This document shows positions 442 to 60,509 of a stretch of DNA of 64,000 bases, in pieces. Below the pieces are notes generated by a model. The model made no database searches. It was not told the DNA's origin and saw only the letters and a program-made list of their open reading frames with translations. The stretch is from Bacteroidota bacterium (lineage in GTDB: Bacteria; Bacteroidota; Bacteroidia; Bacteroidales; UBA4417). Position 1 is the first letter of the stretch. Each line of letters begins with the position of its first letter. The position numbers and the translations under genes are program-made. The stretch is taken from NCBI GenBank assembly GCA_013376995.1, contig JACAAZ010000007.1:135373-199372 (forward strand), written 5' to 3'.

Positions 442-463
442 TTATTGAAATTTTTTCATGACC

Positions 464-500
464 AAAAAGAGGTATTCCTAAACAGGATGCCTCTTTTTTT
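464..500 (+). terminator. rho-independent terminator candidate
   Basis: AAGAGG (467..472) pairs with CCTCTT (490..495) and is followed by a T7 run, 23 nt after the stop codon at 439..441. Confidence 0.6.
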
Positions 501-530
501 ATTGTAGGAGGCCGATATCGTTGATTGTAC

Positions 531-640
531 TGATTTTTGAATGAATGATATATGCTGCGATAATGATCAGTTTGTTAACACGCAGATTTCTATGATTGAA
601 ATGATTTTTGAATGACTGATAAATGCTGCATAATTGCTCA
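531..640. repeat. two ~39-nt imperfect direct repeats (TGATTTTTGAATGAMTGATAWATGCTGCRATAAT...) with 71-nt period
   Basis: Copy 1 is 531..569 and copy 2 is 602..640. They were aligned by eye with a few mismatches. Confidence 0.7.
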
Positions 641-657
641 TTTTTTTTAGACTCTGA

Positions 658-673
658 TCCGTCGGCTGACGGA
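658..673. repeat. 16-bp inverted repeat TCCGTCGGCTGACGGA (copy 1 of 3 in window)
   Basis: An identical 16-mer occurs at 60343..60358, and the perfect palindrome TCCGTCAGCTGACGGA at 32896..32911. All three are intergenic. Confidence 0.85.
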
Positions 674-699
674 CTGATTTTAATAGCTGTTCAGCAATT

Positions 700-733
700 A
701 AAAAGCCGGGTAATGAGATTGCCCGGCTTTTTT
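700..733 (-). terminator. bidirectional rho-independent terminator candidate downstream of the TonB-dependent receptor gene
   Basis: 7-bp GC-rich stem: AGCCGGG (704..710) pairs with CCCGGCT (722..728). It is flanked by an A5 run (700..704) and a T5 run (729..733). Confidence 0.65.
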
Positions 734-751
734 ACATATTGCTATTATCAT

Positions 752-4273: not shown

Positions 4274-5140
4274 ATGTCACTTGGCCACAAATTTTACCTT
4301 TTCCTGTTAACAATTATCACTCTAGCTGTTCTGGCCTATCTATCGTTTCATGGTTGGAATTATTATCAAACAAACCTTGAAGACCGGTTTTTTCATCCTG
4401 ATTATGCATCTCTGAAACCAAGCGGGATTTTCGGACATGGCTATGGAATTATTGGTTCATTGTGCATGTTGTTAGGCGTAGTATTATATATAGCCAGGAA
4501 ACGGCTTCGCAGCTGGTCGAGGATTGGCCTGCTCAAGCATTGGCTGGAGTTTCATATTTTTCTTTGCACAGTTGGTCCTATCCTTGTCCTCTATCATACA
4601 ACATTCAAATTCGGAGGATTGGTAGCCGTTAGTTTCTGGAGTATGGTTGCTGTGTTTGCTTCCGGTGTTATAGGCCGGTTCATTTATATCCAGATCCCGC
4701 GGACCATTGAAGGACGCGAGTTAAGCCTCAGTGAGGTTCGTGACATGAAGAGTAATATTGGACAGGTTCTATCTGAATCTTATCACCTGGATGAGGACTC
4801 TTTTAACCTGATCGTTGAATCTACAAGGAAGAAGATAGAAGTAATAGATTCAAACATTATTGCCAGGTATTTCAAAAAATATTCAGCTGACACAAAAGCT
4901 ATAAAGGCAGTGCATTCTGCTTTGTCAAAGAATAACTTATCAAAATCTGAAACCAGGGAATTATTAAGGCTGGTAAAGCACGATATCTCGCTCAACAGGA
5001 GGATTGACAGGCTGGTAACCATGCAGAACCTTTTTAAATACTGGCATGTGGCTCATCTTCCCTTTGCTTTTGTCATGCTGATCATCATGGTCATTCATGT
5101 TGCTGTAACCGTCACTTTTGGAGCTCATTGGATTTTCTGA
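4274..5140 (+). CDS. polytopic membrane protein with two H-x13-H pairs (putative dihaem-b transmembrane electron carrier, ferric-reductase-domain-like)
   Basis: The ATG at 4274 is preferred over the TTG at 4202. About 5 TM helices are predicted. FH-IFLCTVGPILVLY-H lies in one helix and AH-LPFAFVMLIIMVI-H in another. A long soluble insert sits between them. Confidence 0.6.
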   Translation: MSLGHKFYLFLLTIITLAVLAYLSFHGWNYYQTNLEDRFFHPDYASLKPSGIFGHGYGIIGSLCMLLGVVLYIARKRLRSWSRIGLLKHWLEFHIFLCTVGPILVLYHTTFKFGGLVAVSFWSMVAVFASGVIGRFIYIQIPRTIEGRELSLSEVRDMKSNIGQVLSESYHLDEDSFNLIVESTRKKIEVIDSNIIARYFKKYSADTKAIKAVHSALSKNNLSKSETRELLRLVKHDISLNRRIDRLVTMQNLFKYWHVAHLPFAFVMLIIMVIHVAVTVTFGAHWIF

Positions 5141-28250: not shown

Positions 28251-30143
28251 TCAAATTAATAGGTTAAGCAATAGGATCAGGATAATTCCGATCACCATGA
28301 CGAACATGTAAAAGCCGGTATTCCCGGTCTGTATCAGTCGTAATGTGTTGCCGGTGCGGATTACCAGGTTACCGATCCCATTTACAACTGCATCAATGCC
28401 TTTTACTTCGATAAAACGATGAAAGACATCCGAAAGCCAGGAGAAAGGCTTTACGAAAAGGAAATCATAAATTTCATCAACATAAAATTTCCGGCTCAGC
28501 AAGGATTTTAAGGCTGGAAGTTCAACTCCGTCAGCTATAGGAATAACTTTTTTCTTTGAGTAAATCCACCAGGCAAGTAGAATTGAAGATGCTGTAAAAA
28601 GCAAGGTAATTATGATCAGCATCCATTCAATACCAGTACTCAACTCGGTTCCGTTCGTTTGGACGGAACCCAGAACCGGCTTCAGAAAACTACCCAGGTT
28701 ATGGCTACCCCCGAACAAGGCTGGTATCCCCATGAATCCTCCAATTGCAGCAAGCACTGCAAGGATCAATAAAGGAACAGTCATTACCGCAGGAGACTCA
28801 TGCATATGTTCTTCCTGTTTTTGGGTACCCCTGAATTTGCCGGGAAATACCAGGAAAAGAAGCCGGAACATATAGAATGTTGTGAGCAGGGCACCGGCTA
28901 GAGCAAAAGCCCACATAACCGGATTGGATTTATAGACTTCCATAAGGATCTCATCTTTCGAAAAGAATCCTGAGAGAGGTGGAATTCCGGCAATAGCCAG
29001 TGTTGCAATAAGGAATGTGATGAATGTTGTTCGCAGTTTTCCCGATAGTCCTCCCATTTTCCGGATATCCTGTTCCCCGCCAAGTGCATGAATTACACTG
29101 CCGGCTCCAAGGAACAGAAGGGCCTTGAAAAATGCATGTGTTGTAAGGTGGAACATAGCTCCCGTAAACGAACCAACTCCAAGTGCAAGGAACATGTATC
29201 CCAGCTGGCTAATAGTGGAATAGGCCAGCACCTTCTTGATATCATTCTGCATCATGGCGATCATAGCTGCCATGAGGGCTGTTACCAGGCCGGTCCAGGC
29301 TATGATTTGCATAGTTACAGGAGATAGGATGAATAAGATATTGCAACGAGCCACCATGTAAACACCGGCCGTGACCATGGTTGCGGCATGGATGAGTGCC
29401 GAAACCGGTGTAGGCCCGGCCATGGCATCCGGTAGCCAGGTGAAAAGCGGAATCTGCGCGCTTTTACCGGTAGCTCCTATGAAGAGTAAAATTGTGATCG
29501 CCAGCAGGGTAGGGTCTCCGGATGAGAAGGATTTGGCTTTTTCAAAGACCGTAGTGAATTCTAAGCTTCCAAAGGTTCTAAAAATCAGGAACATCCCAAG
29601 GAGAAATCCCAGGTCACCGATCCTGTTCATGATGAATGCCTTTTTAGCTGCATTGTTGTTTGCATGGTCTTTGAACCAGAAACCGATCAGGAGGTAGGAA
29701 CAGAGCCCAACACCTTCCCAGCCGATGAACATTACGACAAAGTTCCCGGCCATCACGAGCAGCAGCATGGAGAACATGAATAAGTTCATATAAGAGAAGA
29801 AGCGGTTAACTCCGGCATCTTCATGCATATATCCTATTGAGTAGACATGTATCAGGAACCCGACGCCAGTTACGACCAGTAACATAAGGCTGGTGAGTTG
29901 ATCTATATGGAAGCTGAATCCCAACGAGAGGTTCCCTGCCTGGATCCAGTCAAAAAGCGTGATCGATATTGGCTGGTTCCCGTTTTTAAGGGAAACAAAA
30001 GCGATAATTGAAAAGACAAATGAAACAAGAACAGCCAGGCTGGCTATCAATCCTGAATATTGGCGGGGAATCAACCTGAATCCAAACCCGGTTACAAGGA
30101 AGCCGATGAGCGGAAAGATGGGTATAAGCCAGAATTCATGCAT
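28251..30143 (-). CDS. nuoL: NADH-quinone oxidoreductase subunit L
   Basis: 630-aa antiporter-like subunit (…PLFTWLPDAMAGPTPVSALIHAATMV…) with a C-terminal lateral-helix extension. Confidence 0.92.
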   Translation of the reverse strand: MHEFWLIPIFPLIGFLVTGFGFRLIPRQYSGLIASLAVLVSFVFSIIAFVSLKNGNQPISITLFDWIQAGNLSLGFSFHIDQLTSLMLLVVTGVGFLIHVYSIGYMHEDAGVNRFFSYMNLFMFSMLLLVMAGNFVVMFIGWEGVGLCSYLLIGFWFKDHANNNAAKKAFIMNRIGDLGFLLGMFLIFRTFGSLEFTTVFEKAKSFSSGDPTLLAITILLFIGATGKSAQIPLFTWLPDAMAGPTPVSALIHAATMVTAGVYMVARCNILFILSPVTMQIIAWTGLVTALMAAMIAMMQNDIKKVLAYSTISQLGYMFLALGVGSFTGAMFHLTTHAFFKALLFLGAGSVIHALGGEQDIRKMGGLSGKLRTTFITFLIATLAIAGIPPLSGFFSKDEILMEVYKSNPVMWAFALAGALLTTFYMFRLLFLVFPGKFRGTQKQEEHMHESPAVMTVPLLILAVLAAIGGFMGIPALFGGSHNLGSFLKPVLGSVQTNGTELSTGIEWMLIIITLLFTASSILLAWWIYSKKKVIPIADGVELPALKSLLSRKFYVDEIYDFLFVKPFSWLSDVFHRFIEVKGIDAVVNGIGNLVIRTGNTLRLIQTGNTGFYMFVMVIGIILILLLNLLI

Positions 30144-30203
30144 AAGTTAGTAGTCGTATTTGTAAGTTAAAAAGCTTCAAAATTCATCCCTGGGTGGAGC
30201 TGT

Positions 30204-30512
30204 TTACCACTTTAACCTGTTGAGCAGGTGTATATCTACCGAATGTGTGTGCCTGTAAACCATAACAAGTATTGCAAGCCCGATGGCTACCTCAGCTGCT
30301 GCTACTACCATAATGAAGAATACAAATACCTGACCGGCCGGGTCGTTCATATATACCGAGAAAGCTGCAAGTAAGAGATTGATGGAGTTCAGCATCAATT
30401 CGATAGACATAAAGATGGACAAGGCGTTTCGTTTGATCAGTACACCCGCCACCCCGATGGAAAAGAGGACTGTGCAGAACACCAGGTAATCATTCATTGA
30501 AATTGCATTCAT
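30204..30512 (-). CDS. nuoK: NADH-quinone oxidoreductase subunit K
   Basis: 102 aa with 3 TM helices (…AAAEVAIGLAILV…). Confidence 0.9.
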   Translation of the reverse strand: MNAISMNDYLVFCTVLFSIGVAGVLIKRNALSIFMSIELMLNSINLLLAAFSVYMNDPAGQVFVFFIMVVAAAEVAIGLAILVMVYRHTHSVDIHLLNRLKW

Positions 30513-30538
30513 ATTCTTAGAACTTGTAAAGTCGTTGG

Positions 30539-31030
30539 TTAATCTTTCTTACCCAGTAACACTGCTCCAACCATTGCGGAAAGGAAGAGTACTGATGAAA
30601 CCTCAAACGGAAGAAGGTATTCGTGGTATAATACTTTGGCGAGGCTTGATACCAGACCGATCTGGGTCATTGTGGGATCTTTTGCCATTACCACATCCGT
30701 TTGTTTCAAAACTCCCACCAGTGTGATCATGAGTATGCCACCCGCAGCCATGGCTGCCACCTGCACCAGGGCAGGCTTCTGGAACTCGCCTTCCTTGTTA
30801 AGGTTAAGGAGCATGACGGTAAACAGGAAGAGCACCATGATGGCACCGGCATAAACTATGATGTGCACTACAGCCAGGAACTGTGCATTGAGGAGAACAT
30901 AATGCCCTCCAAGGCAGAACATCGCCAGGGTAAGGTACAATACTGTATGTATTGGCTTCTTTGATATAACAACCATGAACGCCGAATACAAGGCCAGGAT
31001 ACAGAGAAAATAGAACAGATAAACCTTCAT
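30539..31030 (-). CDS. nuoJ: NADH-quinone oxidoreductase subunit J
   Basis: 163-aa membrane subunit in the conserved position. Confidence 0.85.
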   Translation of the reverse strand: MKVYLFYFLCILALYSAFMVVISKKPIHTVLYLTLAMFCLGGHYVLLNAQFLAVVHIIVYAGAIMVLFLFTVMLLNLNKEGEFQKPALVQVAAMAAGGILMITLVGVLKQTDVVMAKDPTMTQIGLVSSLAKVLYHEYLLPFEVSSVLFLSAMVGAVLLGKKD

Positions 31031-31079
31031 TCCTTGAAATTTCTATTTTTTGTAATGTGTTTGGTCAATAGTTGAACAA

Positions 31080-31667
31080 CTAATCATTGTGCTTCCGGTT
31101 CTTTTCCTTCTTGAAAGCCAGTACTTCAGGAGTTTGTCTTTTTGTGACATCGACCCTGTTGTCCATGGATTCAACCAATATATCCTTCCCATATATGAAC
31201 CGATCTCTGTGATAATCTGCGTTTACAATTCTGGGCGTCAGGAATATAGCTTCTTTGGGGCAGGCTTCCTCGCACAATCCACAGAAAATGCAGCGCAACA
31301 TATTGATCTCGTATATTTTGGCATATTTTTCTTCCCTGTATAGATTCTCTTCCCCCGGTTTGCGCTCTTCTGCAACCATGGTAATGGCTTCAGCGGGGCA
31401 GGCAACTGCACAAAGGCCACAGGCGGTGCAGCGTTCACGGCCTTCATCATCCCTTTTCAACACATGTTGTCCGCGGTATATTTCTGAGAATTCCCTCTTG
31501 GTCTCAGGGTAGCGAATGGTGGCTTTATGCTTCAGAAGGTGACTCAATGTAATAGTCATCCCTTTCAGGATGGCGGGCAGATAAAGTCGTTCCACCCAGG
31601 TAATTTTCTTATCAGAAACGATCTTCGACCGGCCTGAAACAGAAGTATATGGTTTTAAATCACTCAT
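31080..31667 (-). CDS. nuoI: NADH-quinone oxidoreductase subunit I (2x[4Fe-4S])
   Basis: Two canonical CxxCxxCxxxCP motifs: CTACGLCAVACP and CIFCGLCEEACP. Confidence 0.93.
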   Translation of the reverse strand: MSDLKPYTSVSGRSKIVSDKKITWVERLYLPAILKGMTITLSHLLKHKATIRYPETKREFSEIYRGQHVLKRDDEGRERCTACGLCAVACPAEAITMVAEERKPGEENLYREEKYAKIYEINMLRCIFCGLCEEACPKEAIFLTPRIVNADYHRDRFIYGKDILVESMDNRVDVTKRQTPEVLAFKKEKNRKHND

Positions 31668-31697
31668 TATTTCCTGATAAAAGCAGTATTGACAAGA

Positions 31698-32723
31698 TTA
31701 GTGTAACAACCTGATAACAAACCCTGTAATAACCATGTTGAAAATGGCCAGCGGGATAAGTTTCTTCCATCCCAGTTTCATAAGTTGATCATACCTGAAC
31801 CTTGGTAAGGTCCAGCGGATCCACATGAAAACAAAGCCAAAAAATGTAATTTTCAGGAAGAGAATCAGAACTCCTATAATGGTAAGGATGTTATGAGAAA
31901 CTGGTAACATGGATTCAAACGGGAAATGGTATCCGCCGAAATAGAGGCAGGAAATGATAGCAGCTGATATAAACATATTGATATATTCGGCAAACAGGTA
32001 GAAGCCGAGTTTCATGGAACTGTATTCGGTATGGTATCCTCCTACCAATTCAGTTTCACATTCAGGAAGGTCAAAAGGTGCACGATTCGTTTCAGCGAGG
32101 GCGCAAACAAGGAAGATGACAAATCCAAGCGGCTGATACCAAACGTTCCAGTTGAATCCAGCCTGCTGGTCAACGATCTTCTGAATACTCAGGGTTCCTG
32201 ACATCATAACCACGGCAATGATAGATAATCCCATTGCCAGTTCATAGCTGATCATCTGGGAGGCAGCACGAATGGCTCCCAACAGCGCATATTTATTGTT
32301 CGAGGCCCATCCCCCGATCATAATTCCATAGACACCAACAGAAACGACTGCAAAAACATAGAGTATCCCAATATTGATATCAGCAACCTGGAGACTGAAT
32401 TCATGCCCATTGATAATAAGGCTGTTACCCCAGGGGATTACTGCGGAGGTGAGCAAAGCCACCAGCATGGTGAGGGAAGGCCCGAGGATATAAAGGAATT
32501 TATTAGCTGATGCGGGCATGAATTCCTCTTTGTAGAAAAGCTTGATGCCATCAGCCAGGGGCTGTAACAGTCCGAAGGGACCTGCCCTGTCCGGCCCAAG
32601 CCTGTCCTGGAAAAAGGCAGCAAGCTTCCTCTCAGCCAATGTGGAGTACATGGCAATCAGCAGGCTCACAGTCAGTATGGCGATGGACAGAGTGGCTTTG
32701 TATAGGATGAATTGGTATTCCAT
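31698..32723 (-). CDS. nuoH: NADH-quinone oxidoreductase subunit H
   Basis: 341 aa (…RLGPDRAGPFGLLQPLADGIKL…, …APFDLPECETELVGGYHTEYS…). Confidence 0.93.
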   Translation of the reverse strand: MEYQFILYKATLSIAILTVSLLIAMYSTLAERKLAAFFQDRLGPDRAGPFGLLQPLADGIKLFYKEEFMPASANKFLYILGPSLTMLVALLTSAVIPWGNSLIINGHEFSLQVADINIGILYVFAVVSVGVYGIMIGGWASNNKYALLGAIRAASQMISYELAMGLSIIAVVMMSGTLSIQKIVDQQAGFNWNVWYQPLGFVIFLVCALAETNRAPFDLPECETELVGGYHTEYSSMKLGFYLFAEYINMFISAAIISCLYFGGYHFPFESMLPVSHNILTIIGVLILFLKITFFGFVFMWIRWTLPRFRYDQLMKLGWKKLIPLAIFNMVITGFVIRLLH

Positions 32724-33032
32724 GCTGGTCTTTTAGGGTACTAAAAATCTCTTGATGTTAAGGCTAAGCGCTAAGAGCATAGTGCATAGCGTTATATTGA
32801 TGTTATAATTTATGCAGGGTAGTTTTATTCTTTTGCATCTTGATTCGTTCTTCTGACTTCCGACTTCTTACTTCCTATTTTTATCTTTTGACTTTTCCGT
32901 CAGCTGACGGATTTGACTTTTATCTTTTGACTTTTGTCTTTTGTCTTTTGACTTTTGTCTTTTGACTTTTGTCTTTTATCTTTTGACTTTTATCTTATTC
33001 CTCCCCACTTTGCGCTTAACGCTGCACCCCCC
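32724..33032. repeat. mosaic heptamer-repeat spacer between nuoG and nuoH (region A)
   Basis: 309 nt non-coding. It has about 15 phased WCTTTTR heptamers (about 32880..32997), GACTTCC/TACTTCC words, and GCTAAGCGCTAAGAGCATAGTGCATAGCG (32762..32790). The perfect 16-bp palindrome lies at 32896..32911. Confidence 0.9.
32896..32911. repeat. perfect 16-bp palindrome TCCGTCAGCTGACGGA (copy 2 of 3)
   Basis: Read directly from the sequence. It is embedded in the CTTTTG heptamer tract. Confidence 0.9.
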
Positions 33033-34001
33033 TCACTCCTGTTTCTCTGTCTTTTCCTCAAGTGGCTTGATGATAGACGGTTTTTTTATTTTTTCATAAT
33101 GGTTGGCTGATATGACCGAATTCCGTTCGATGTGGCGGGGGCCTTCAATAACCCAATCGGAAGTCTGTTTCTTTTCAAAACGGCATTCATCGCAAATGAA
33201 TTCCTCAACTTCTCCGAATTGATCCTTGCGGGCAGTTACCCTGTAAATCTCCTTGCCAAACATCCAGGCTGTGACTTTCCCGCTGCATTTCAGGCAATCG
33301 CGGTGGGCGTTCATTGGGTTCAGGAACCATACCCTGCTTTTAAAGCGGAAAGTGCGGTCAGTCAGGGCCCCTACAGGGCATACATCAATCACATTCCCTG
33401 AGAAATCAGAATTAATATTTTGGCTGATGAGGGTGCTGATCTCAGCCGTGTCACCCCTGTACATCACGCCATGCACACGTTTGCCGGCAATCTGGTCCGC
33501 AGTATAAACGCAGCGGTAGCAAAGGATACATCGGTTCATGTGCAGTTTGATCTTCTCACCAATATCAACTACATCAAATTCTCTTTTCTCTTCGATATAG
33601 CGGGTAGCTTCAAGTCCATGTTTGAAACTGAGGTCCTGGAGGTCGCATTCACCAGCCTGGTCGCAAACCGGGCAATCCAACGGGTGATTGATCAGCAGGA
33701 ATTCCACGATGGCTTTCCTGGCTGCAAGAACTTCGGGAGATGTTATATTCTGAACGACCATTCCATCCTGGACAGGTGTGCTGCATGAGGCTACCAATTT
33801 AGGCATAGGCCTTGGATCAGCTGCGGAACCCTGGGCTACTTTAACCAGGCAGGTACGGCATTTTCCGCCGCTTCCCTTCAATTTGGAGTAGTAACACATA
33901 GCAGGAGGCACTACTTCCCCGCCGATTTTTCTGGCAGCGTTGAGGATAGTGGTTCCCGGTTCTACTTCGACCGTTATGTTATCAATGGTTACTTTAAACA
34001 T
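33033..34001 (-). CDS. nuoG: NADH-quinone oxidoreductase subunit G, short form (FeS N-terminal module only)
   Basis: 2Fe-2S motif CYYSKLKGSGGKCRTCLV...C, HPLDCPVCDQAGEC, and CILCYRC...CPVGAL. The ATG at 34001 overlaps the nuoF stop by 8 nt; the ORF track TTG is at 34013. Confidence 0.88.
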   Translation of the reverse strand: MFKVTIDNITVEVEPGTTILNAARKIGGEVVPPAMCYYSKLKGSGGKCRTCLVKVAQGSAADPRPMPKLVASCSTPVQDGMVVQNITSPEVLAARKAIVEFLLINHPLDCPVCDQAGECDLQDLSFKHGLEATRYIEEKREFDVVDIGEKIKLHMNRCILCYRCVYTADQIAGKRVHGVMYRGDTAEISTLISQNINSDFSGNVIDVCPVGALTDRTFRFKSRVWFLNPMNAHRDCLKCSGKVTAWMFGKEIYRVTARKDQFGEVEEFICDECRFEKKQTSDWVIEGPRHIERNSVISANHYEKIKKPSIIKPLEEKTEKQE

Positions 34002-35340
34002 GTACTTGTGCAAGTTTAGAAATGGGCTGGTGTTTTGGATCCCTGACCAATTCCGGGTAATTTACATGAAATTCAAATTCTTCCCTGAAATGCCTTATGG
34101 CGCTGGCAACAGGCCAAGCAGCAGCATCCCCGAGCGGACAGATGGTATTGCCTTCAATCTTGGCCGCTATGCTTACGAGCAGGTCAATATCTTCCTGGCG
34201 CCCATGGCCGTTCTCGATCCGGTGAAGCACCTTCTCCATCCAGCCTGTGCCTTCGCGGCAGGGCGAACACTGGCCGCAGCTTTCATGGTGGTAAAAACGT
34301 GAGAAATTCCAGGTACTGCGGACCATGCAGGCATCCGCATCATACACAATAAATCCCCCGGAACCCATCATGGTCCCGCTGACAAATCCACCTTCAGCCA
34401 GGGATTCATAACTCATAAGCCTTGGTTCACCTGCTGCGGTAGTAGTAATCAGCTTAGCAGGAAGAACAGGAACCGAAGATCCGCCGGGTATAACAGCTTT
34501 TAATTGCTTCCCGCCTTTGATGCCCCCGCAATATTCTTCGGAAAACAGGAATTCACTGACCGGAAGCCCCAGTTCTATTTCATAAACACCCGGTTTGTTA
34601 ATATTGCCGCAGGCAGAGATCAGTTTTGTACCAGTACTACGTCCAATTCCAATCTTAGCGTATTCAGGGCCGCCCATATTGATGATAGGGCCGACGGCTG
34701 CAAGTGTTTCTACATTGTTGACTACCGTAGGGCAGTCGTAAAGCCCCTTAACAGCGGGGAAAGGAGGTTTGATGCGGGGATTTCCCCTTTTACCTTCCAG
34801 GGATTCCAGCAAAGCTGTTTCTTCACCGCAGATATAGGCTCCCGCACCTGAATGAACATATATCTCAAGCGAGTAATTCGTTCCGAGTATATTTTTTCCA
34901 AGGAAACCGGCTTTACGGGCTTCGGCTACCGCCTGTTCCAGGATGCCAATTTGGGTTTTAAACTCACCCCTGACATAAACGAAGGTGGCATTGCAGCCCA
35001 GTGCATAACTTGAAACAATCAAACCTTCAATTAACAGGTGAGGGATATGGTCAATCAGGTAGCGATCCTTGAATGTTCCGGGTTCACTTTCATCTGCATT
35101 ACAAACGAGGTAGCGGGGATTATTGGTTTTCCTGTCTAAGAAGCTCCATTTGAGGCCTGTCGGGAAGCCGGCTCCACCACGGCCACGCAGGCCCGATTTC
35201 TTAACCTCTTCGATGACTTCGTCAGGAGACATGGTTTTCAGGGCTTTCTCCACTGCGGAGTAGCCTTTGTTGGCCCGGTAAACATCGAAGGTTTTGATGC
35301 CGGGAACGTCGATATGTTCTAACAGAATTTTTCGGCCCAT
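33994..35340 (-). CDS. nuoF: NADH-quinone oxidoreductase subunit F (FMN/NADH-binding)
   Basis: GRGGAGFPTGLKW, GAGAYICGEETALLESLEG and ESCGQCSPCREG. Confidence 0.95.
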   Translation of the reverse strand: MGRKILLEHIDVPGIKTFDVYRANKGYSAVEKALKTMSPDEVIEEVKKSGLRGRGGAGFPTGLKWSFLDRKTNNPRYLVCNADESEPGTFKDRYLIDHIPHLLIEGLIVSSYALGCNATFVYVRGEFKTQIGILEQAVAEARKAGFLGKNILGTNYSLEIYVHSGAGAYICGEETALLESLEGKRGNPRIKPPFPAVKGLYDCPTVVNNVETLAAVGPIINMGGPEYAKIGIGRSTGTKLISACGNINKPGVYEIELGLPVSEFLFSEEYCGGIKGGKQLKAVIPGGSSVPVLPAKLITTTAAGEPRLMSYESLAEGGFVSGTMMGSGGFIVYDADACMVRSTWNFSRFYHHESCGQCSPCREGTGWMEKVLHRIENGHGRQEDIDLLVSIAAKIEGNTICPLGDAAAWPVASAIRHFREEFEFHVNYPELVRDPKHQPISKLAQVHV

Positions 35341-35897
35341 TTGCTTTCCTTCGGTTTATCAACATTTGCTTTAGATCTCAATTCCGATAGAATCCGGTCG
35401 ATCTTTTCGTTAGTCAGGTTTTCTTCAAATTCGGTATTTACCTGCATGACCGGGGCATATCCACAAGCACCCAGGCACTCAACTCCCTGGAGGGTAAAAA
35501 GCCCGTCGGGAGTAGTTTCACCGTCAGTGATTCCAAGTTTTTCGCTGAGGTATTCAAAAATATCTTCGCCTCCGCAAATGGCACAGGGAGCAGTACGGCA
35601 AACTTCCAGCAGGAATTTGCCGGTATTCTCAAGTCTGAACTGGGTGTAGAAGGTTGCAACTTCGTAAACCTCCACAGGCTGGATTTTCAGCAGATCAGCA
35701 ACGAAATCCATAACATCCACGCGGAGGTGACCACCGGATTCTTCCTGTGCAATATGAAGTATCGGAAGCAGGGCTGATTTTTGCCTGCCTTCCGGGTAGC
35801 GGCCAATAAGCTTCCTGAACTTCGCAAGGGTCTCCTTACTGAATTCTACAGGCTGATTATCCCGTTCGAATATTTTATGTTGTATGCGTAAGGCCAT
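35319..35897 (-). CDS. nuoE: NADH-quinone oxidoreductase subunit E (2Fe-2S)
   Basis: Thioredoxin-like ferredoxin pattern CRTAPCAICGG...ECLGACGYAP. Confidence 0.92.
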   Translation of the reverse strand: MALRIQHKIFERDNQPVEFSKETLAKFRKLIGRYPEGRQKSALLPILHIAQEESGGHLRVDVMDFVADLLKIQPVEVYEVATFYTQFRLENTGKFLLEVCRTAPCAICGGEDIFEYLSEKLGITDGETTPDGLFTLQGVECLGACGYAPVMQVNTEFEENLTNEKIDRILSELRSKANVDKPKESKWAEKFC

Positions 35898-36234
35898 TAA
35901 TCGGGTAGTTGTGTTTTGTTTAGCACTTAGGGCTTAGCGCGGGGTGTTATGGTTTGGCGTTCGACGTTTGGGGTTCCTGGTTCTTGGTTCCATGTTCAGA
36001 GTTCTGTGTTCCATGTTCCATGTTAAGCTTTCTTTATTGAGTCTTTCAGTTTCTATATCATTCTTACTACTTGCTTCTTGCTTCTTACTTCTTTCTACCT
36101 GCTTCTTACTTCCTACTTCCTACTTCCTACTTCCTACTTCTGTCTTCTTACATCCACTTTTATCTTTTGTCTTTCTCCTTTTGTCTTTTATCTTAAACTA
36201 CCCGCTTCGCTCTCAGCGCTTTGCTCTAAGCTCA
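35898..36234. repeat. mosaic heptamer-repeat spacer between nuoD and nuoE (region B)
   Basis: 337 nt non-coding. It has TACTTCC x4 plus TACTTCT (36107..36141), GTTCCAT(G) repeats (35987..36024) and CTTTT(A/G)T words. GCTTAGCGC and CAGCGCTTTGCTCTAAGC blocks sit at the ends. Confidence 0.9.
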
Positions 36235-39883: not shown

Positions 39884-39930
39884 GGGTTTTAAACCTGACA
39901 GGTTTCTAAAACCTGTCAGGTTTAAAACCC
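39884..39930. repeat. REP-like 47-nt perfect palindrome (22-nt arms, 3-nt loop)
   Basis: GGGTTTTAAACCTGACAGGTTT-CTA-AAACCTGTCAGGTTTAAAACCC, 33 nt upstream of the transposase start. Confidence 0.85.
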
Positions 39931-45380: not shown

Positions 45381-45618
45381 AGAAATGCAAAGTGCAAAAT
45401 GCAAAGTGCAAAATGCAAAATGCAAATAGATGGATGTCGGGTGCCGACGAACGAGGGACGAGGGAAAAGGGACGGTTTCCAGGTGCCTGGTTCCAAGGGA
45501 CAGGGGACAAGGGACTTGAGATAAGTGTAGTGTTCCATGTTCAGTGTACTAAAAACAAAGAACTAATAGCTCATAACATAACTCATAACTCATAACGAAT
45601 ACACCACAACAATCCACC
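45381..45618. repeat. mosaic heptamer-repeat spacer between galE and rfbB (region C)
   Basis: RTGCAAA x6 (45385..45426), ACGAGGG/AAAAGGG and GACARGG words, the 13-mer GTTCCATGTTCAG (45532..45544) and CTCATAAC repeats (45570..45596). Confidence 0.9.
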
Positions 45619-53106: not shown

Positions 53107-53321
53107 GGGGTGAAGGTGTTATTGTCTGTTGTTAGTTATTGGTAATTGATGATTAGTTATTGGTAATTGGTGATTGGTTATTGGTTATTGGTTATTGGTT
53201 ATTGGTGATTAGTTACTGGTAATTAGTTAGTTCCGGTTAAGGAGGATTGCATTTTCTTGTATTACAAGGCTCTTCGCCCTTTGCCCTACGCGCTGCACCC
53301 TAAGCCCTTTGCGCTAAGCAT
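53107..53321. repeat. mosaic heptamer-repeat spacer between the PTPS/QueD-family gene and folE (region D)
   Basis: 14 perfectly phased heptamers TRGTDAT (53133..53230). A GC-rich block of phased 7-mers (CCCTTTG CCCTACG CGCTGCA CCCTAAG CCCTTTG CGCTAAG CATTCAG CGCTGCG) runs into the stop codon at 53322. Confidence 0.92.
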
Positions 53322-58880: not shown

Positions 58881-59077
58881 AGGAGAGATAGGGGAAAAGG
58901 GGACAAGGAGTGAGTCGCCCAATAGTCAAACAATAGTCATTCATTGGTCACTCAATTGTTAATTGAAAGGAAAGCATTAAACCGGGAGCAAGGTTCTATG
59001 TAATTAATAAAGATATTCAATCCAAAACCAATAACGTATTACCGGTAACCTATAACCTATAACTAATCACCTGCACC
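58881..59077. repeat. mosaic repeat spacer upstream of dxr (region E)
   Basis: GGGGAAAAGGGGACAAGG words, an 11-mer array CAATAGTCAAA / CAATAGTCATT / CATTGGTCACT (58920..58952), and CCAATAAC and CCTATAAC words just before dxr. Confidence 0.85.
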
Positions 59078-60241
59078 CTGAAACGAAGAATAGCCATACT
59101 TGGATCTACAGGCTCCATTGGAACACAGGCGCTGGAAGTCATTCGCGACCATCCCCGTGAACTGGATGTCGAAGTGCTTACTGCACATTCCAATGCCCCC
59201 CTTCTTATCAGGCAGGCCCTGGAATTCAAGCCCAATGTTGTGGTTATTGCTAAGGAGAGCATGTACGAAAAGGTACATGAAGCCCTGGATCCTTTTGACA
59301 TCAAAGTATATGCTGGAGAAGAGTCCATTTCGCAGGTTGTTGCAATGGATACAATCGACATGGTGCTTGTAGCCCTGGTAGGATTTTCGGGACTGAAGCC
59401 GACCATTGAAGCCATCAAGGCACAAAAACCCATTGCTCTTGCAAATAAGGAGACATTGGTGGTAGCAGGTGAACTCGTCACCCGTCTTGCTAAGGAGAAA
59501 GGTGTTAACATTTACCCAGTTGACTCTGAGCATTCGGCGATCTTTCAATGCCTTGCCGGGGAATTCCATAACCCGGTCGAAAAAGTTATCCTCACCGCCT
59601 CCGGCGGGCCATTTAGGGGAATGGACCGCAAAGCATTGGAAAAAGTAAGCAAGGACCAGGCCCTTAATCATCCAAACTGGAAAATGGGCTGTAAGGTCAC
59701 TATTGACTCTGCTTCTATGATGAACAAAGGTCTTGAGGTTATTGAAGCCTGCTGGCTATTTGGGCTCAAACCTGAACAGGTTGATGTGATCATTCATCCG
59801 CAGAGTATTATTCACTCCCTTGTGCAGTTTACTGACGGAGCGATGAAAGCCCAAATGGGGCTGCCTGACATGCGCCTTCCCATTCAATATGCTCTTGGAT
59901 ATCCACAGCGGATGAAATCTTCATTTCCGCGGTTTAACTTCCTGGATTATCCCCAACTGACTTTCCAGGCTCCGGACCATGAAGCTTTCCCCTGCCTGGA
60001 TCTTGCCTACAGCGCAATGAAAAAGGGTGGAAATATGCCTTGTGTGATGAATGCGGCGGATGAAATTGCAGTGCATGCTTTCCTTCGTGAAGAGATCAGT
60101 TTCCTCCAGATCCCTGAACTCATTGAACAATGCATGAACACTTCAGGTTTCATTCAAGCTCCAGGCTTTGACGAGTTTATGCTGACGGACCAGGAAACCA
60201 GGATGCTGGCAAATGAGGTATTGCGTAAAATGAAACGATGA
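59078..60241 (+). CDS. dxr: 1-deoxy-D-xylulose 5-phosphate reductoisomerase
   Basis: (L/M)KRRIAILGSTGSIGTQALEVI NADPH motif, NKGLEVIEA, 3' end at 60241. The 5' end is uncertain. The conserved N-terminus lies upstream of the first GTG (59174) with no ATG/GTG/TTG after the in-frame stop at 59060; CTG at 59078 is proposed. Confidence 0.85.
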   Translation: MKRRIAILGSTGSIGTQALEVIRDHPRELDVEVLTAHSNAPLLIRQALEFKPNVVVIAKESMYEKVHEALDPFDIKVYAGEESISQVVAMDTIDMVLVALVGFSGLKPTIEAIKAQKPIALANKETLVVAGELVTRLAKEKGVNIYPVDSEHSAIFQCLAGEFHNPVEKVILTASGGPFRGMDRKALEKVSKDQALNHPNWKMGCKVTIDSASMMNKGLEVIEACWLFGLKPEQVDVIIHPQSIIHSLVQFTDGAMKAQMGLPDMRLPIQYALGYPQRMKSSFPRFNFLDYPQLTFQAPDHEAFPCLDLAYSAMKKGGNMPCVMNAADEIAVHAFLREEISFLQIPELIEQCMNTSGFIQAPGFDEFMLTDQETRMLANEVLRKMKR

Positions 60242-60509
60242 TCGTCTTACCTTTGCAGGGAGAGGCAGTGGTCACACAATAGTCAAACAATGGTCAAACA
60301 ATGGTCAAACAATGGTCAAACAATGGTCAAACAATGGTCATTTCCGTCGGCTGACGGATCATTCAATTGGCGTAGGGCATAGCGCTTAGAGGGGGTAATA
60401 AGGAGATAAAAGCTTTGCATCTTTGCGCCTTTGCGAGAGAAAGAATAGTCAGACAAGAACGAACAAACAATAACCAATAACTCATAACACATTATCCTTC
60501 AACATATAT
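60242..60509. repeat. mosaic repeat spacer between dxr and rseP (region F)
   Basis: 11-mer array TGGTCAAACAA x about 7 (60269..60345, four perfect copies), the 16-bp inverted repeat (60343..60358) and GCATAGCGCTTAG. It also has CTTTGCATCTTTGCGCCTTTGCG and a 48-nt G-free CCAATAAC/CTCATAAC leader (60462..60509). Confidence 0.92.

Follow-up and report, generated by a model that had tools for sequence, protein, structure and literature searches.

The 64,000-nucleotide (nt) stretch analyzed here (the window; assembly GCA_013376995.1, contig JACAAZ010000007.1, positions 135,373 to 199,372 of the forward strand) comes from a Bacteroidota bacterium of the Bacteroidales and carries a complete 14-gene nuo operon on its minus strand, running from 38921 to 25338 (open reading frame (ORF) map, NCBIfam). 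All nuo junctions of the window measure -22 to +60 nt, except nuoD|nuoE (337 nt) and nuoG|nuoH (309 nt). A preliminary description of the sequence had singled out the latter gap, hereafter spacer A, as non-coding DNA, and the ORF map and NCBIfam assignments bear this out. Spacer A is one of six spacers with a 7-nt period in the window, all of which lie between same-strand genes: nuoD|nuoE, nuoG|nuoH, galE|rfbB, queD-like|folE, M23 peptidase|dxr and dxr|rseP. The features of spacer A and its flanking genes are listed below; sense refers to the mRNA of the flanking genes.

32724..33032, minus strand: spacer A, the 309-nt intercistronic nuoG|nuoH gap, a mosaic of heptamer blocks (ORF map, NCBIfam, lag-7 identity, no Rfam match)
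33033..34013, minus strand: nuoG, upstream of spacer A, the short Bacteroidota form of 322-326 amino acids (aa) (NCBIfam TIGR01973, E=1.2e-87); 322 aa as called in a Logan contig
31698..32723, minus strand: nuoH, downstream of spacer A, with an ATG that no Shine-Dalgarno sequence precedes (NCBIfam, leader sequence)
33000..33032, minus strand: 5' module of spacer A, directly after the nuoG stop codon, in sense GGGGGGTGCAGCGTTAAGCGCAAAGTGGGGAGG, with the words GCTGCACCC and AGCGCAAAG in common with spacer D
32912..32996, minus strand: main array of spacer A, with 12 repeats of WCTTTTR (plus strand), which is AAAAGWC in mRNA sense (Tandem Repeats Finder (TRF), period 7, 12.1 copies, score 114)
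32896..32911, no strand assigned: perfect 16-bp palindrome TCCGTCAGCTGACGGA, interrupting the heptamer array of spacer A
32844..32882, minus strand: second array of spacer A, TTCYGAC/TTCTTAC units, which are GGAAGTM-type in mRNA sense (TRF at 32850-32875, lag-7 segment)
32760..32792, minus strand: G+C-rich heptamers GCTAAGC, GCTAAGA, GCATAGT and GCATAGC at the sense 3' end of spacer A (lag-7 segment)

Lag-7 identity over the whole of spacer A is 0.523, compared with 0.311±0.024 in 2000 shuffles (maximum 0.411). The periodic sequence falls into three blocks (32760-32792, 32844-32882 and 32911-32999) that together make up only ~52% of the spacer, so that the original statement that it consists almost entirely of phased 7-nt words goes too far. 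About 15 WCTTTTR units had been counted; the core CTTTT does occur 15 times, the full word WCTTTTR 14 times, and 11 units are consecutive and in the same phase. The palindrome is perfect over 16 bp, as described. The units of the second array are common to spacer A, spacer B and L082, the metagenome contig nearest to the window (NuoH 91% identical), and spacers B and D begin with modules related to the 5' module. The fold predicted for the RNA of spacer A pairs the G+C-rich heptamers at 32760-32792 with the 5' module.

The preliminary description grouped spacer A with six other intergenic regions, which on analysis contain the following.

35898..36234, minus strand: spacer B, the 337-nt nuoD|nuoE gap; TRF arrays at 35972-36231; lag-7 identity 0.59
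45381..45618, plus strand: spacer C, the galE|rfbB gap; arrays of AAATGCA (six copies), ACGAGGG, CAAGGGA and AACTCAT; lag-7 identity 0.59 (TRF, NCBIfam)
53107..53321, minus strand: spacer D, the queD-like|folE gap; 13.6 copies of GTTATTG (sense CAATAAC) and G+C-rich heptamers at the sense 5' end; lag-7 identity 0.58
58881..59077, plus strand: spacer E, the M23-peptidase-like|dxr gap; AATAGTCAAAC units and an AACCTAT array at 59026-59063
60242..60509, plus strand: spacer F, the dxr|rseP gap; an 11-nt array of 6.5 copies (60269-60340), the palindrome (60343-60358) and three copies of CTTTGCG (60413-60440)
442..751, no strand assigned: a gap between convergent genes and not a heptamer spacer, with a lag-7 identity of 0.26, tied to the others only by the palindrome at 658-673

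Against a lag-7 identity of 0.25 in coding DNA, the proposed seven-locus family thus holds for the six period-7 spacers, and the region at 442-751 drops out, as it has the palindrome without the heptamer signal. The lag-7 identity is 0.38 for the spacer E region (58881-59173) and 0.36 for spacer F, whose main array has period 11 rather than 7 and whose lag-11 identity is higher at 0.43. The TRF run that had been recommended returned period-7 arrays in all six spacers and period 11 in one of them as well. In spacers C, D and F, the ATG follows the end of an array by 22-28 nt: the AACTCAT array of spacer C ends 22 nt short of it, and CCAATAAC/TAACTCA units stand near the ATG in spacer F. At least 10 unrelated units are used across the window (AAAAGWC, GGAAGTA, ATGGAAC, AAATGCA, ACGAGGG, CAATAAC, AACTCAT, AACCTAT and others).

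Several neighboring features were also seen. Within the region at 442-751, terminator-like hairpins lie at 464-498 and 700-732, and a 71-nt sequence is duplicated in tandem (511-581 and 582-652; 76% identical). The gap upstream of the nuo operon region contains a period-18 tandem repeat (GGTTTAAAACCTGACA-like, 2.7 copies) at 39885-39929. Downstream of spacer E, dxr has no ATG, GTG or TTG between an in-frame TAA (59060-59062) and its essential N-terminal GSTGSIG motif, and the frame reads LITCTLKRRIAILGSTGSIG; either the gene must start at a non-canonical codon, such as CTG 59078 or ATC 59066, or there must be a sequence error here. The candidate non-canonical start lies ~15 nt downstream of the heptamer array.

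The spacers draw on a common vocabulary. In the seven regions originally listed, 93 distinct 9-mers are found in at least two regions, compared with 21.5±6.0 in dinucleotide shuffles (maximum 48), and 63 10-mers compared with 6.2±3.2, so the word reuse that had been called far from random does not disappear against shuffled sequence. Most of the individual recurrences that had been named are where they were said to be: ACTTTTATCTTTTG at 32916 and 36156 (spacers A and B), GCTGCACCC at 33021 and 53292 (A and D), GCATAGCG at 32784 and 60377 (A and F), and TACTTCC four times within 36107-36134 (B). The word CTTAGCGC, placed in region F, was instead found in region B at 35933, and AGCGCTTAG of region F is common with region A in reverse complement. 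Local alignment of sense strands gives z-scores of 10.4 for A-B, 7.4 for E-F, 6.0 for D-F and 5.7 for D-E, and the blocks that spacer pairs have in common keep the same sense orientation. For about 200 nt, A and B keep the same order of blocks and can be regarded as collinear paralogues in direct orientation. In sense, both begin with CAAAGCG/CTTAGCG-type G+C-rich heptamers right after the stop codon, followed by an AAAAGAY array, GGAAGTA-type units, a non-periodic stretch and, before the start codon, further G+C-rich heptamers. These comparisons support, at the level of sequence, non-random word reuse and a relationship between the spacers. Spacers A and B also bracket exactly nuoEFG, the NADH-oxidizing module of complex I.

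The 16-bp palindrome TCCGTCRGCTGACGGA appears to have a separate history. It occurs three times in 64 kb (0.32 expected), at 658-673, 32896-32911 and 60343-60358, and each copy lies between short direct duplications (ctga/ctga, tcatt/tcatt and tttgacttt/tttgacttt, respectively). The copy in spacer A is flanked by the direct repeat TTTGACTTT, and removing the palindrome plus 2 or 9 nt restores the phase of the array. A further copy is present in a metagenome-assembled genome (MAG) of Mariniphaga (L024, 15502-15517), and a relative of the window, L016, has in its nuoD|nuoE spacer (within 4986-5099) a hairpin whose stem is the same and whose loop is larger. The palindrome looks like a very small inserted element, its mobility being suggested by the flanking duplications alone, and it would have entered the spacer A array later, as a separate small element.

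We compared the palindrome with two kinds of small dispersed element. In CGTC-tagged repetitive extragenic palindromic sequences (REPs), the CGTC tag is unpaired, and stems of 8-9 bp that start with A-T pairs enclose loops of 4-5 nt and are followed by a 3-nt tail (Di Nocera 2013, PMC3733652). The palindrome resembles these as a small dispersed extragenic palindrome containing CGTC and lying between same-strand or convergent genes, but its CGTC is paired within a 6-bp stem, or else within a perfect 16-bp palindrome, and it does not belong to that class. The small dispersed repeats (SDR) of Nostoc, hairpin-forming elements of ~20 nt, were reportedly found by Elhai et al. in 2008 to be inserted into tandem heptamer arrays. 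The palindrome differs from them in sequence and phylum, and it has only three copies here plus the one in L024.

The spacers themselves are heptanucleotide tandem-repeat mosaics of the kind known as short tandemly repeated repetitive (STRR) sequences or long simple sequence repeats (LSSRs), a class that has already been described and that is common in Bacteroidota, too, in the gaps inside operons. The preliminary description had recognized no described repeat class, yet heptamer assemblages in Bacteroidetes are on record (PMC4679880). The assignment follows from head-to-tail 7-nt units beyond chance (12.1 copies at 32912-32996 and arrays in five more spacers), from their dispersal in non-coding DNA (six spacers in 64 kb, with a coding lag-7 identity of 0.25), and from length changes in whole units, seen between the nuoC|nuoD spacers of the relatives L016 and L099. 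The STRR sequences of filamentous cyanobacteria are 7-bp tandem units in intergenic DNA, for example between hupS and hupL, where their function is unknown and transcript stability or translational coupling has been proposed (PMC2670836). The window spacers resemble them in having tandem 7-bp units at many intergenic loci per genome, including gaps in operons for multi-subunit redox enzymes. They differ in their Bacteroidota host and in that every spacer combines several unit types and ends in G+C-rich heptamers on both sides. The canonical STRR units CCCCAGT, TTGGTCA and CAACAGT have no tandem copies in the window spacers, which, with their Bacteroidota host, are therefore not cyanobacterial STRR sequences in the strict sense.

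Mrazek's 2007 survey of LSSRs, as summarized in PMC4679880, covered units of 5-11 nt, found heptamers to be commonest and proposed polymerase slippage as their origin; by the same summary, Bacteroidota were outside its top genomes. The window arrays share with these LSSRs a length beyond chance, the prevalence of heptamers and the exclusion from coding DNA of units that are not multiples of 3. They differ in that the survey, as far as the summary goes, defines its repeats by statistics and ties them neither to gaps inside operons nor to strand bias or shared blocks. TAACTGA arrays have been described from Beggiatoaceae, Cyanobacteria and five Bacteroidetes, at sites immediately before start codons (MacGregor 2015, PMC4679880), in a study that also noted "larger assemblages of heptamer repeats" in intergenic regions of Gramella, Aequorivita and Elizabethkingia, close relatives with shorter, repeat-free gaps, and assemblies that break in the repeats. 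Transcript stability, translational coupling or regulation have been suggested for the TAACTGA repeats (PMC4679880) and for Nostoc heptamers. The window arrays likewise are intergenic, in forward orientation and close to the start codon that follows (at 22-28 nt in C, D and F, and at a median of 8 nt in 93 nuo spacers of the survey below), and assemblies break in both. Unlike the TAACTGA repeats, they are many-unit mosaics inside a respiratory operon. Tandem TAACTGA is absent from the window and from 162 loci examined, so the arrays are not TAACTGA direct repeats by exact unit; TAACTCA, one mismatch away, stands at 45579 and 60478, 22-27 nt before two start codons.

Other classes do not fit, as the preliminary description had correctly concluded for REPs, bacterial interspersed mosaic elements (BIMEs), miniature inverted-repeat transposable elements (MITEs) and clustered regularly interspaced short palindromic repeats (CRISPR). 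REPs and BIMEs are high-copy imperfect palindromes, 20-40 bp long and often clustered with alternating orientation, while the arrays are direct repeats without hairpin units and their fold z-scores are -0.75 to +1.6 in five of six spacers. MITEs have several near-full-length copies, common terminal inverted repeats and target-site duplications; the pairwise alignments between our spacers are local, limited to repeat blocks and without termini in common. CRISPR repeats of 23-47 nt alternate with unique spacers of similar length, whereas the units here are 7 or 11 nt long and contiguous. The recommended Rfam check for a known non-coding RNA family also found nothing in the spacers: the window has no match at the gathering threshold, and the sole match at E≤1 is sub-threshold and inside coding DNA.

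To place these observations in a wider context, we examined 80 genome and 80 metagenome loci around nuoH, with gap lengths measured from homology-placed nuo genes. The best NuoH match among 185,579 species genomes (GTDB set) is 77% identical and comes from Prolixibacteraceae and Bacteroidales MAGs. Tandem arrays scoring at least 40 were found in 42 of the 80 genome loci, and in these loci their periods are 7 (n=42), 14 (n=30) and 21 (n=12), with 14, 12, 7 and 3 arrays at periods 8 to 11. When 12 lags were compared in the 184 nuo gaps that reach 100 nt, lag 7 scored best in 55 and lag 14 in 18. Period-7 arrays are strongly confined by gap class: same-strand gaps (56.7 kb) contain 78 of them, convergent gaps (8.6 kb) 6 and divergent gaps (13.9 kb) none, and 18 were found in 1.1 Mb of called coding DNA compared with 84 in intergenic DNA. 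In 93 nuo spacers, the arrays adjoin the flanking genes: at the median, 8 nt separate the stop codon from the first array, and another 8 nt lie between the last array and the start codon. The sense strand carries more A than T in all nine window arrays and in 56 same-strand arrays compared with 22 of the opposite composition.

Tight packing, which had been taken as the norm for nuo genes, is borne out by median gaps of 2-42 nt at every nuo junction of related loci, but the gap reaches 100 nt or more at 10 of 146 G|H junctions and at 40 of 119 F|G junctions, and the expanded junction varies from lineage to lineage. The nuoE/nuoF junction overlaps by 22 nt in the window (35319-35340) and in nearly all the closely related loci listed; it is rarely expanded in related loci (100 measurable), the other nuo junctions being expanded sporadically. 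The survey does not support heptamer classes favored across taxa: 23 classes were seen in at least two loci compared with 21.2 expected from composition. Two to three CTTTGYG units in a row do occur in spacers of four genomes (window 60413-60445, L082 279-310, L064 ~6932 on the minus strand, and L099 2067-2095), followed by AGA(G/A)AA in three of them; there are 7 such matches compared with 1 in shuffled sequence.

Comparison of relatives reveals how the arrays change. The preliminary description had asked for length polymorphism in orthologous spacers, and this was found between L016 and L099, whose nuoH genes are 93% identical at the DNA level and whose C|D spacers differ by exactly one 7-nt unit. 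Their G|H spacers are ~99% identical, while the D|E spacer has been wholly replaced (114 versus 277 nt). In the genomes at 77% NuoH identity, the G|H gap measures 2-4 nt, whereas L082 is also long at both G|H (353 nt) and D|E (194 nt). The G|H spacer of L082 contains AGTAGGA/AGTAAGA (GGAAGTA-type) units, as do A and B, and is otherwise not alignable to spacer A; its D|E spacer (166-323) uses the 8-nt units AATTTGAG and AATTAGAC where the window has heptamers, so unit length is not strictly 7. Together, these comparisons indicate that arrays change by unit steps and block replacement, and that an expanded position can persist. A search for a second strain of the window's own species, in which spacer A itself might vary, found none: exact NuoH and NuoE sequences are present in one Logan sample only (SRR12042537), and the exact NuoG sequence is not on record. 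Short-read unitigs of that sample are identical to the window and end inside heptamer arrays with a 29-nt overlap (L001, window 28698-32995; L162, window 32967-36127). Heptamer arrays thus break short-read assemblies, and MAGs are therefore fragmented at operon-internal positions.

In sense, the window spacers contain 35-47% A and 13-23% U, compared with ordinary window gaps in which U equals or exceeds A. Their folding energy is -0.12 to -0.24 kcal/mol per nt, compared with -0.258±0.034 for coding windows, and z-scores against composition-matched shuffles (-3.1, +0.9, -0.75, +0.2, +1.2 and +1.6 for the six spacers) give no common fold. No Shine-Dalgarno sequence was found in the leader sequences before the start codons downstream of the spacers. 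The scan for promoters and intrinsic terminators returned nothing above shuffle expectation, with sigma-70-like matches below it (1 compared with 4.1). The Bacteroidetes -7 promoter motif TAnnTTTG is absent from five of six spacers, and lies 27-41 nt upstream of the start in three of seven control upstream regions. The sole terminator-like site of that scan lies on the plus strand, antisense to nuo, where the palindrome precedes a T-rich tract.

On balance, we think it probable that these spacers are slippage-generated repeats that are carried in polycistronic mRNA as A-rich, weakly folded linkers or leaders. Two parts of this proposal are supported by the comparisons above: an origin by slippage, block exchange and fast turnover, and persistence only in same-strand gaps, between a stop codon and the next start codon (apart from the 6 convergent arrays of the survey). 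Slippage during replication would lengthen or shorten arrays by whole units and diversify them, and blocks would be swapped or copied between spacers, an exchange that accounts for the combination of common vocabulary and quick turnover. Same-strand neighbor genes are presumably co-transcribed, in which case the spacers would be carried in polycistronic mRNA with the A-rich, U-poor strand as sense. A long, weakly folded linker may uncouple neighboring cistrons and may provide the A-rich leader, free of a Shine-Dalgarno sequence, from which Bacteroidota ribosomes begin translation of the downstream gene, and unit-step changes in length could tune that start.

Several observations weigh against this proposal. 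Co-transcription and any translational role are inferred from sequence. The gap-class counts rely on gene calls in related loci made by a crude longest-ORF heuristic. Of the 78 same-strand arrays, 22 are T-rich in sense, and A exceeds T in sense in 154 of the 184 long nuo gaps, so the bias is not specific to arrays, which may only be following a general constraint and have no function to contribute. Spacer A alone folds better than its shuffles (z=-3.1), through a long-range stem that joins its two G+C-rich ends. Its main array ends 189 nt before the nuoH ATG and so is not itself the ribosome-binding region. Finally, the linker proposal leaves the 7-nt unit size unexplained.

The main rival, to which we give a real but clearly smaller chance, is that the arrays are purely neutral slippage debris, in which 7-nt units expand through a property of the replication machinery, survive where they are harmless and have no effect on expression. 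The polymerase slippage proposed by Mrazek (as summarized in PMC4679880) provides the process, and neutral turnover would fit the diversity of units, the lack of sequence conservation between close relatives and the shift of the expanded junction between lineages. It does not readily account for the placement of the arrays, with none in 13.9 kb of divergent gaps compared with 78 in 56.7 kb of same-strand gaps, for the 56:22 strand bias, or for the D|E and G|H junctions that stay long in both the window and L082 while their content changes. The gap-class skew, strand bias and kept junctions therefore imply at least purifying constraints on where arrays lie; a positive function is not proved by them.

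A further alternative derives the period from the register of a protein. On this view the arrays are multivalent platforms that act as post-transcriptional regulators, each unit being one site for a single-strand nucleic-acid binder whose footprint is 7 nt, for instance a cold-shock domain or the S1 oligonucleotide/oligosaccharide-binding (OB) folds. The cold-shock domain binds a heptanucleotide, with the consensus GTCTTTG/T for Bacillus subtilis CspB (PMC1904285), and spacer A contains, on its plus strand, 5 exact GTCTTTT and 11 G[AT]CTTTT, but this strand is antisense to the nuo mRNA, which carries AAAAGAC. S1, Csp and CsrA have been proposed as binders of TAACTGA repeats (PMC4679880), and the arrays adjoin start codons. 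Given that the window uses at least 10 unrelated units as well as 8- and 11-nt units, no single sequence-specific binder fits this diversity, and heptamer classes recur across taxa no more than composition predicts (23 versus 21.2). We consider this explanation unlikely. A stronger form of it, in which the arrays are a selected mRNA-level device common to Bacteroidota and Cyanobacteria, the two phyla that largely dispense with Shine-Dalgarno pairing, providing multivalent landing pads in a 7-nt register for OB-fold proteins (S1, cold-shock) that drive independent initiation at internal cistrons, seems to us more doubtful still.

The two remaining explanations are both highly improbable. That spacer A is a non-autonomous, MITE-like mobile cassette inserted into the operon, with the family as its transposed copies, would suit the A-B collinearity (z=10.4 over about 200 nt), the imperfect inverted repeats at the ends of spacer A and the 2-4-nt G|H gap in relatives at 77% identity, but no spacer pair aligns end to end, similarity is limited to repeat blocks, members have neither common terminal inverted repeats nor target-site duplications at spacer ends, and insertion-like behavior is confined to the 16-bp palindrome. 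Regulation at the DNA level, with the spacers as internal promoters, terminators or phase-variable switches that divide the nuo operon into modules, would suit the exact bracketing of nuoEFG, the unit-step length changes and the terminator-like palindrome with its T-rich tract, yet that site is on the antisense strand, sigma-70-like matches fall short of shuffles, five of six spacers lack the -7 motif and the arrays avoid divergent promoter gaps altogether.

The function of heptanucleotide repeats has been an open question since their description in cyanobacteria, and cases in Bacteroidota have barely been studied. The window offers a compact example, with six related arrays, two of which bracket nuoEFG in an essential respiratory operon. 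If the doubtful landing-pad device were real, unit-step changes would tune subunit stoichiometry, here that of the nuoEFG module between spacers A and B. Returning to the linker proposal that we favor, if the regularities of the survey hold genome-wide, these repeats would be linked with transcription units and with translation that does without a Shine-Dalgarno sequence, and not with promoters.

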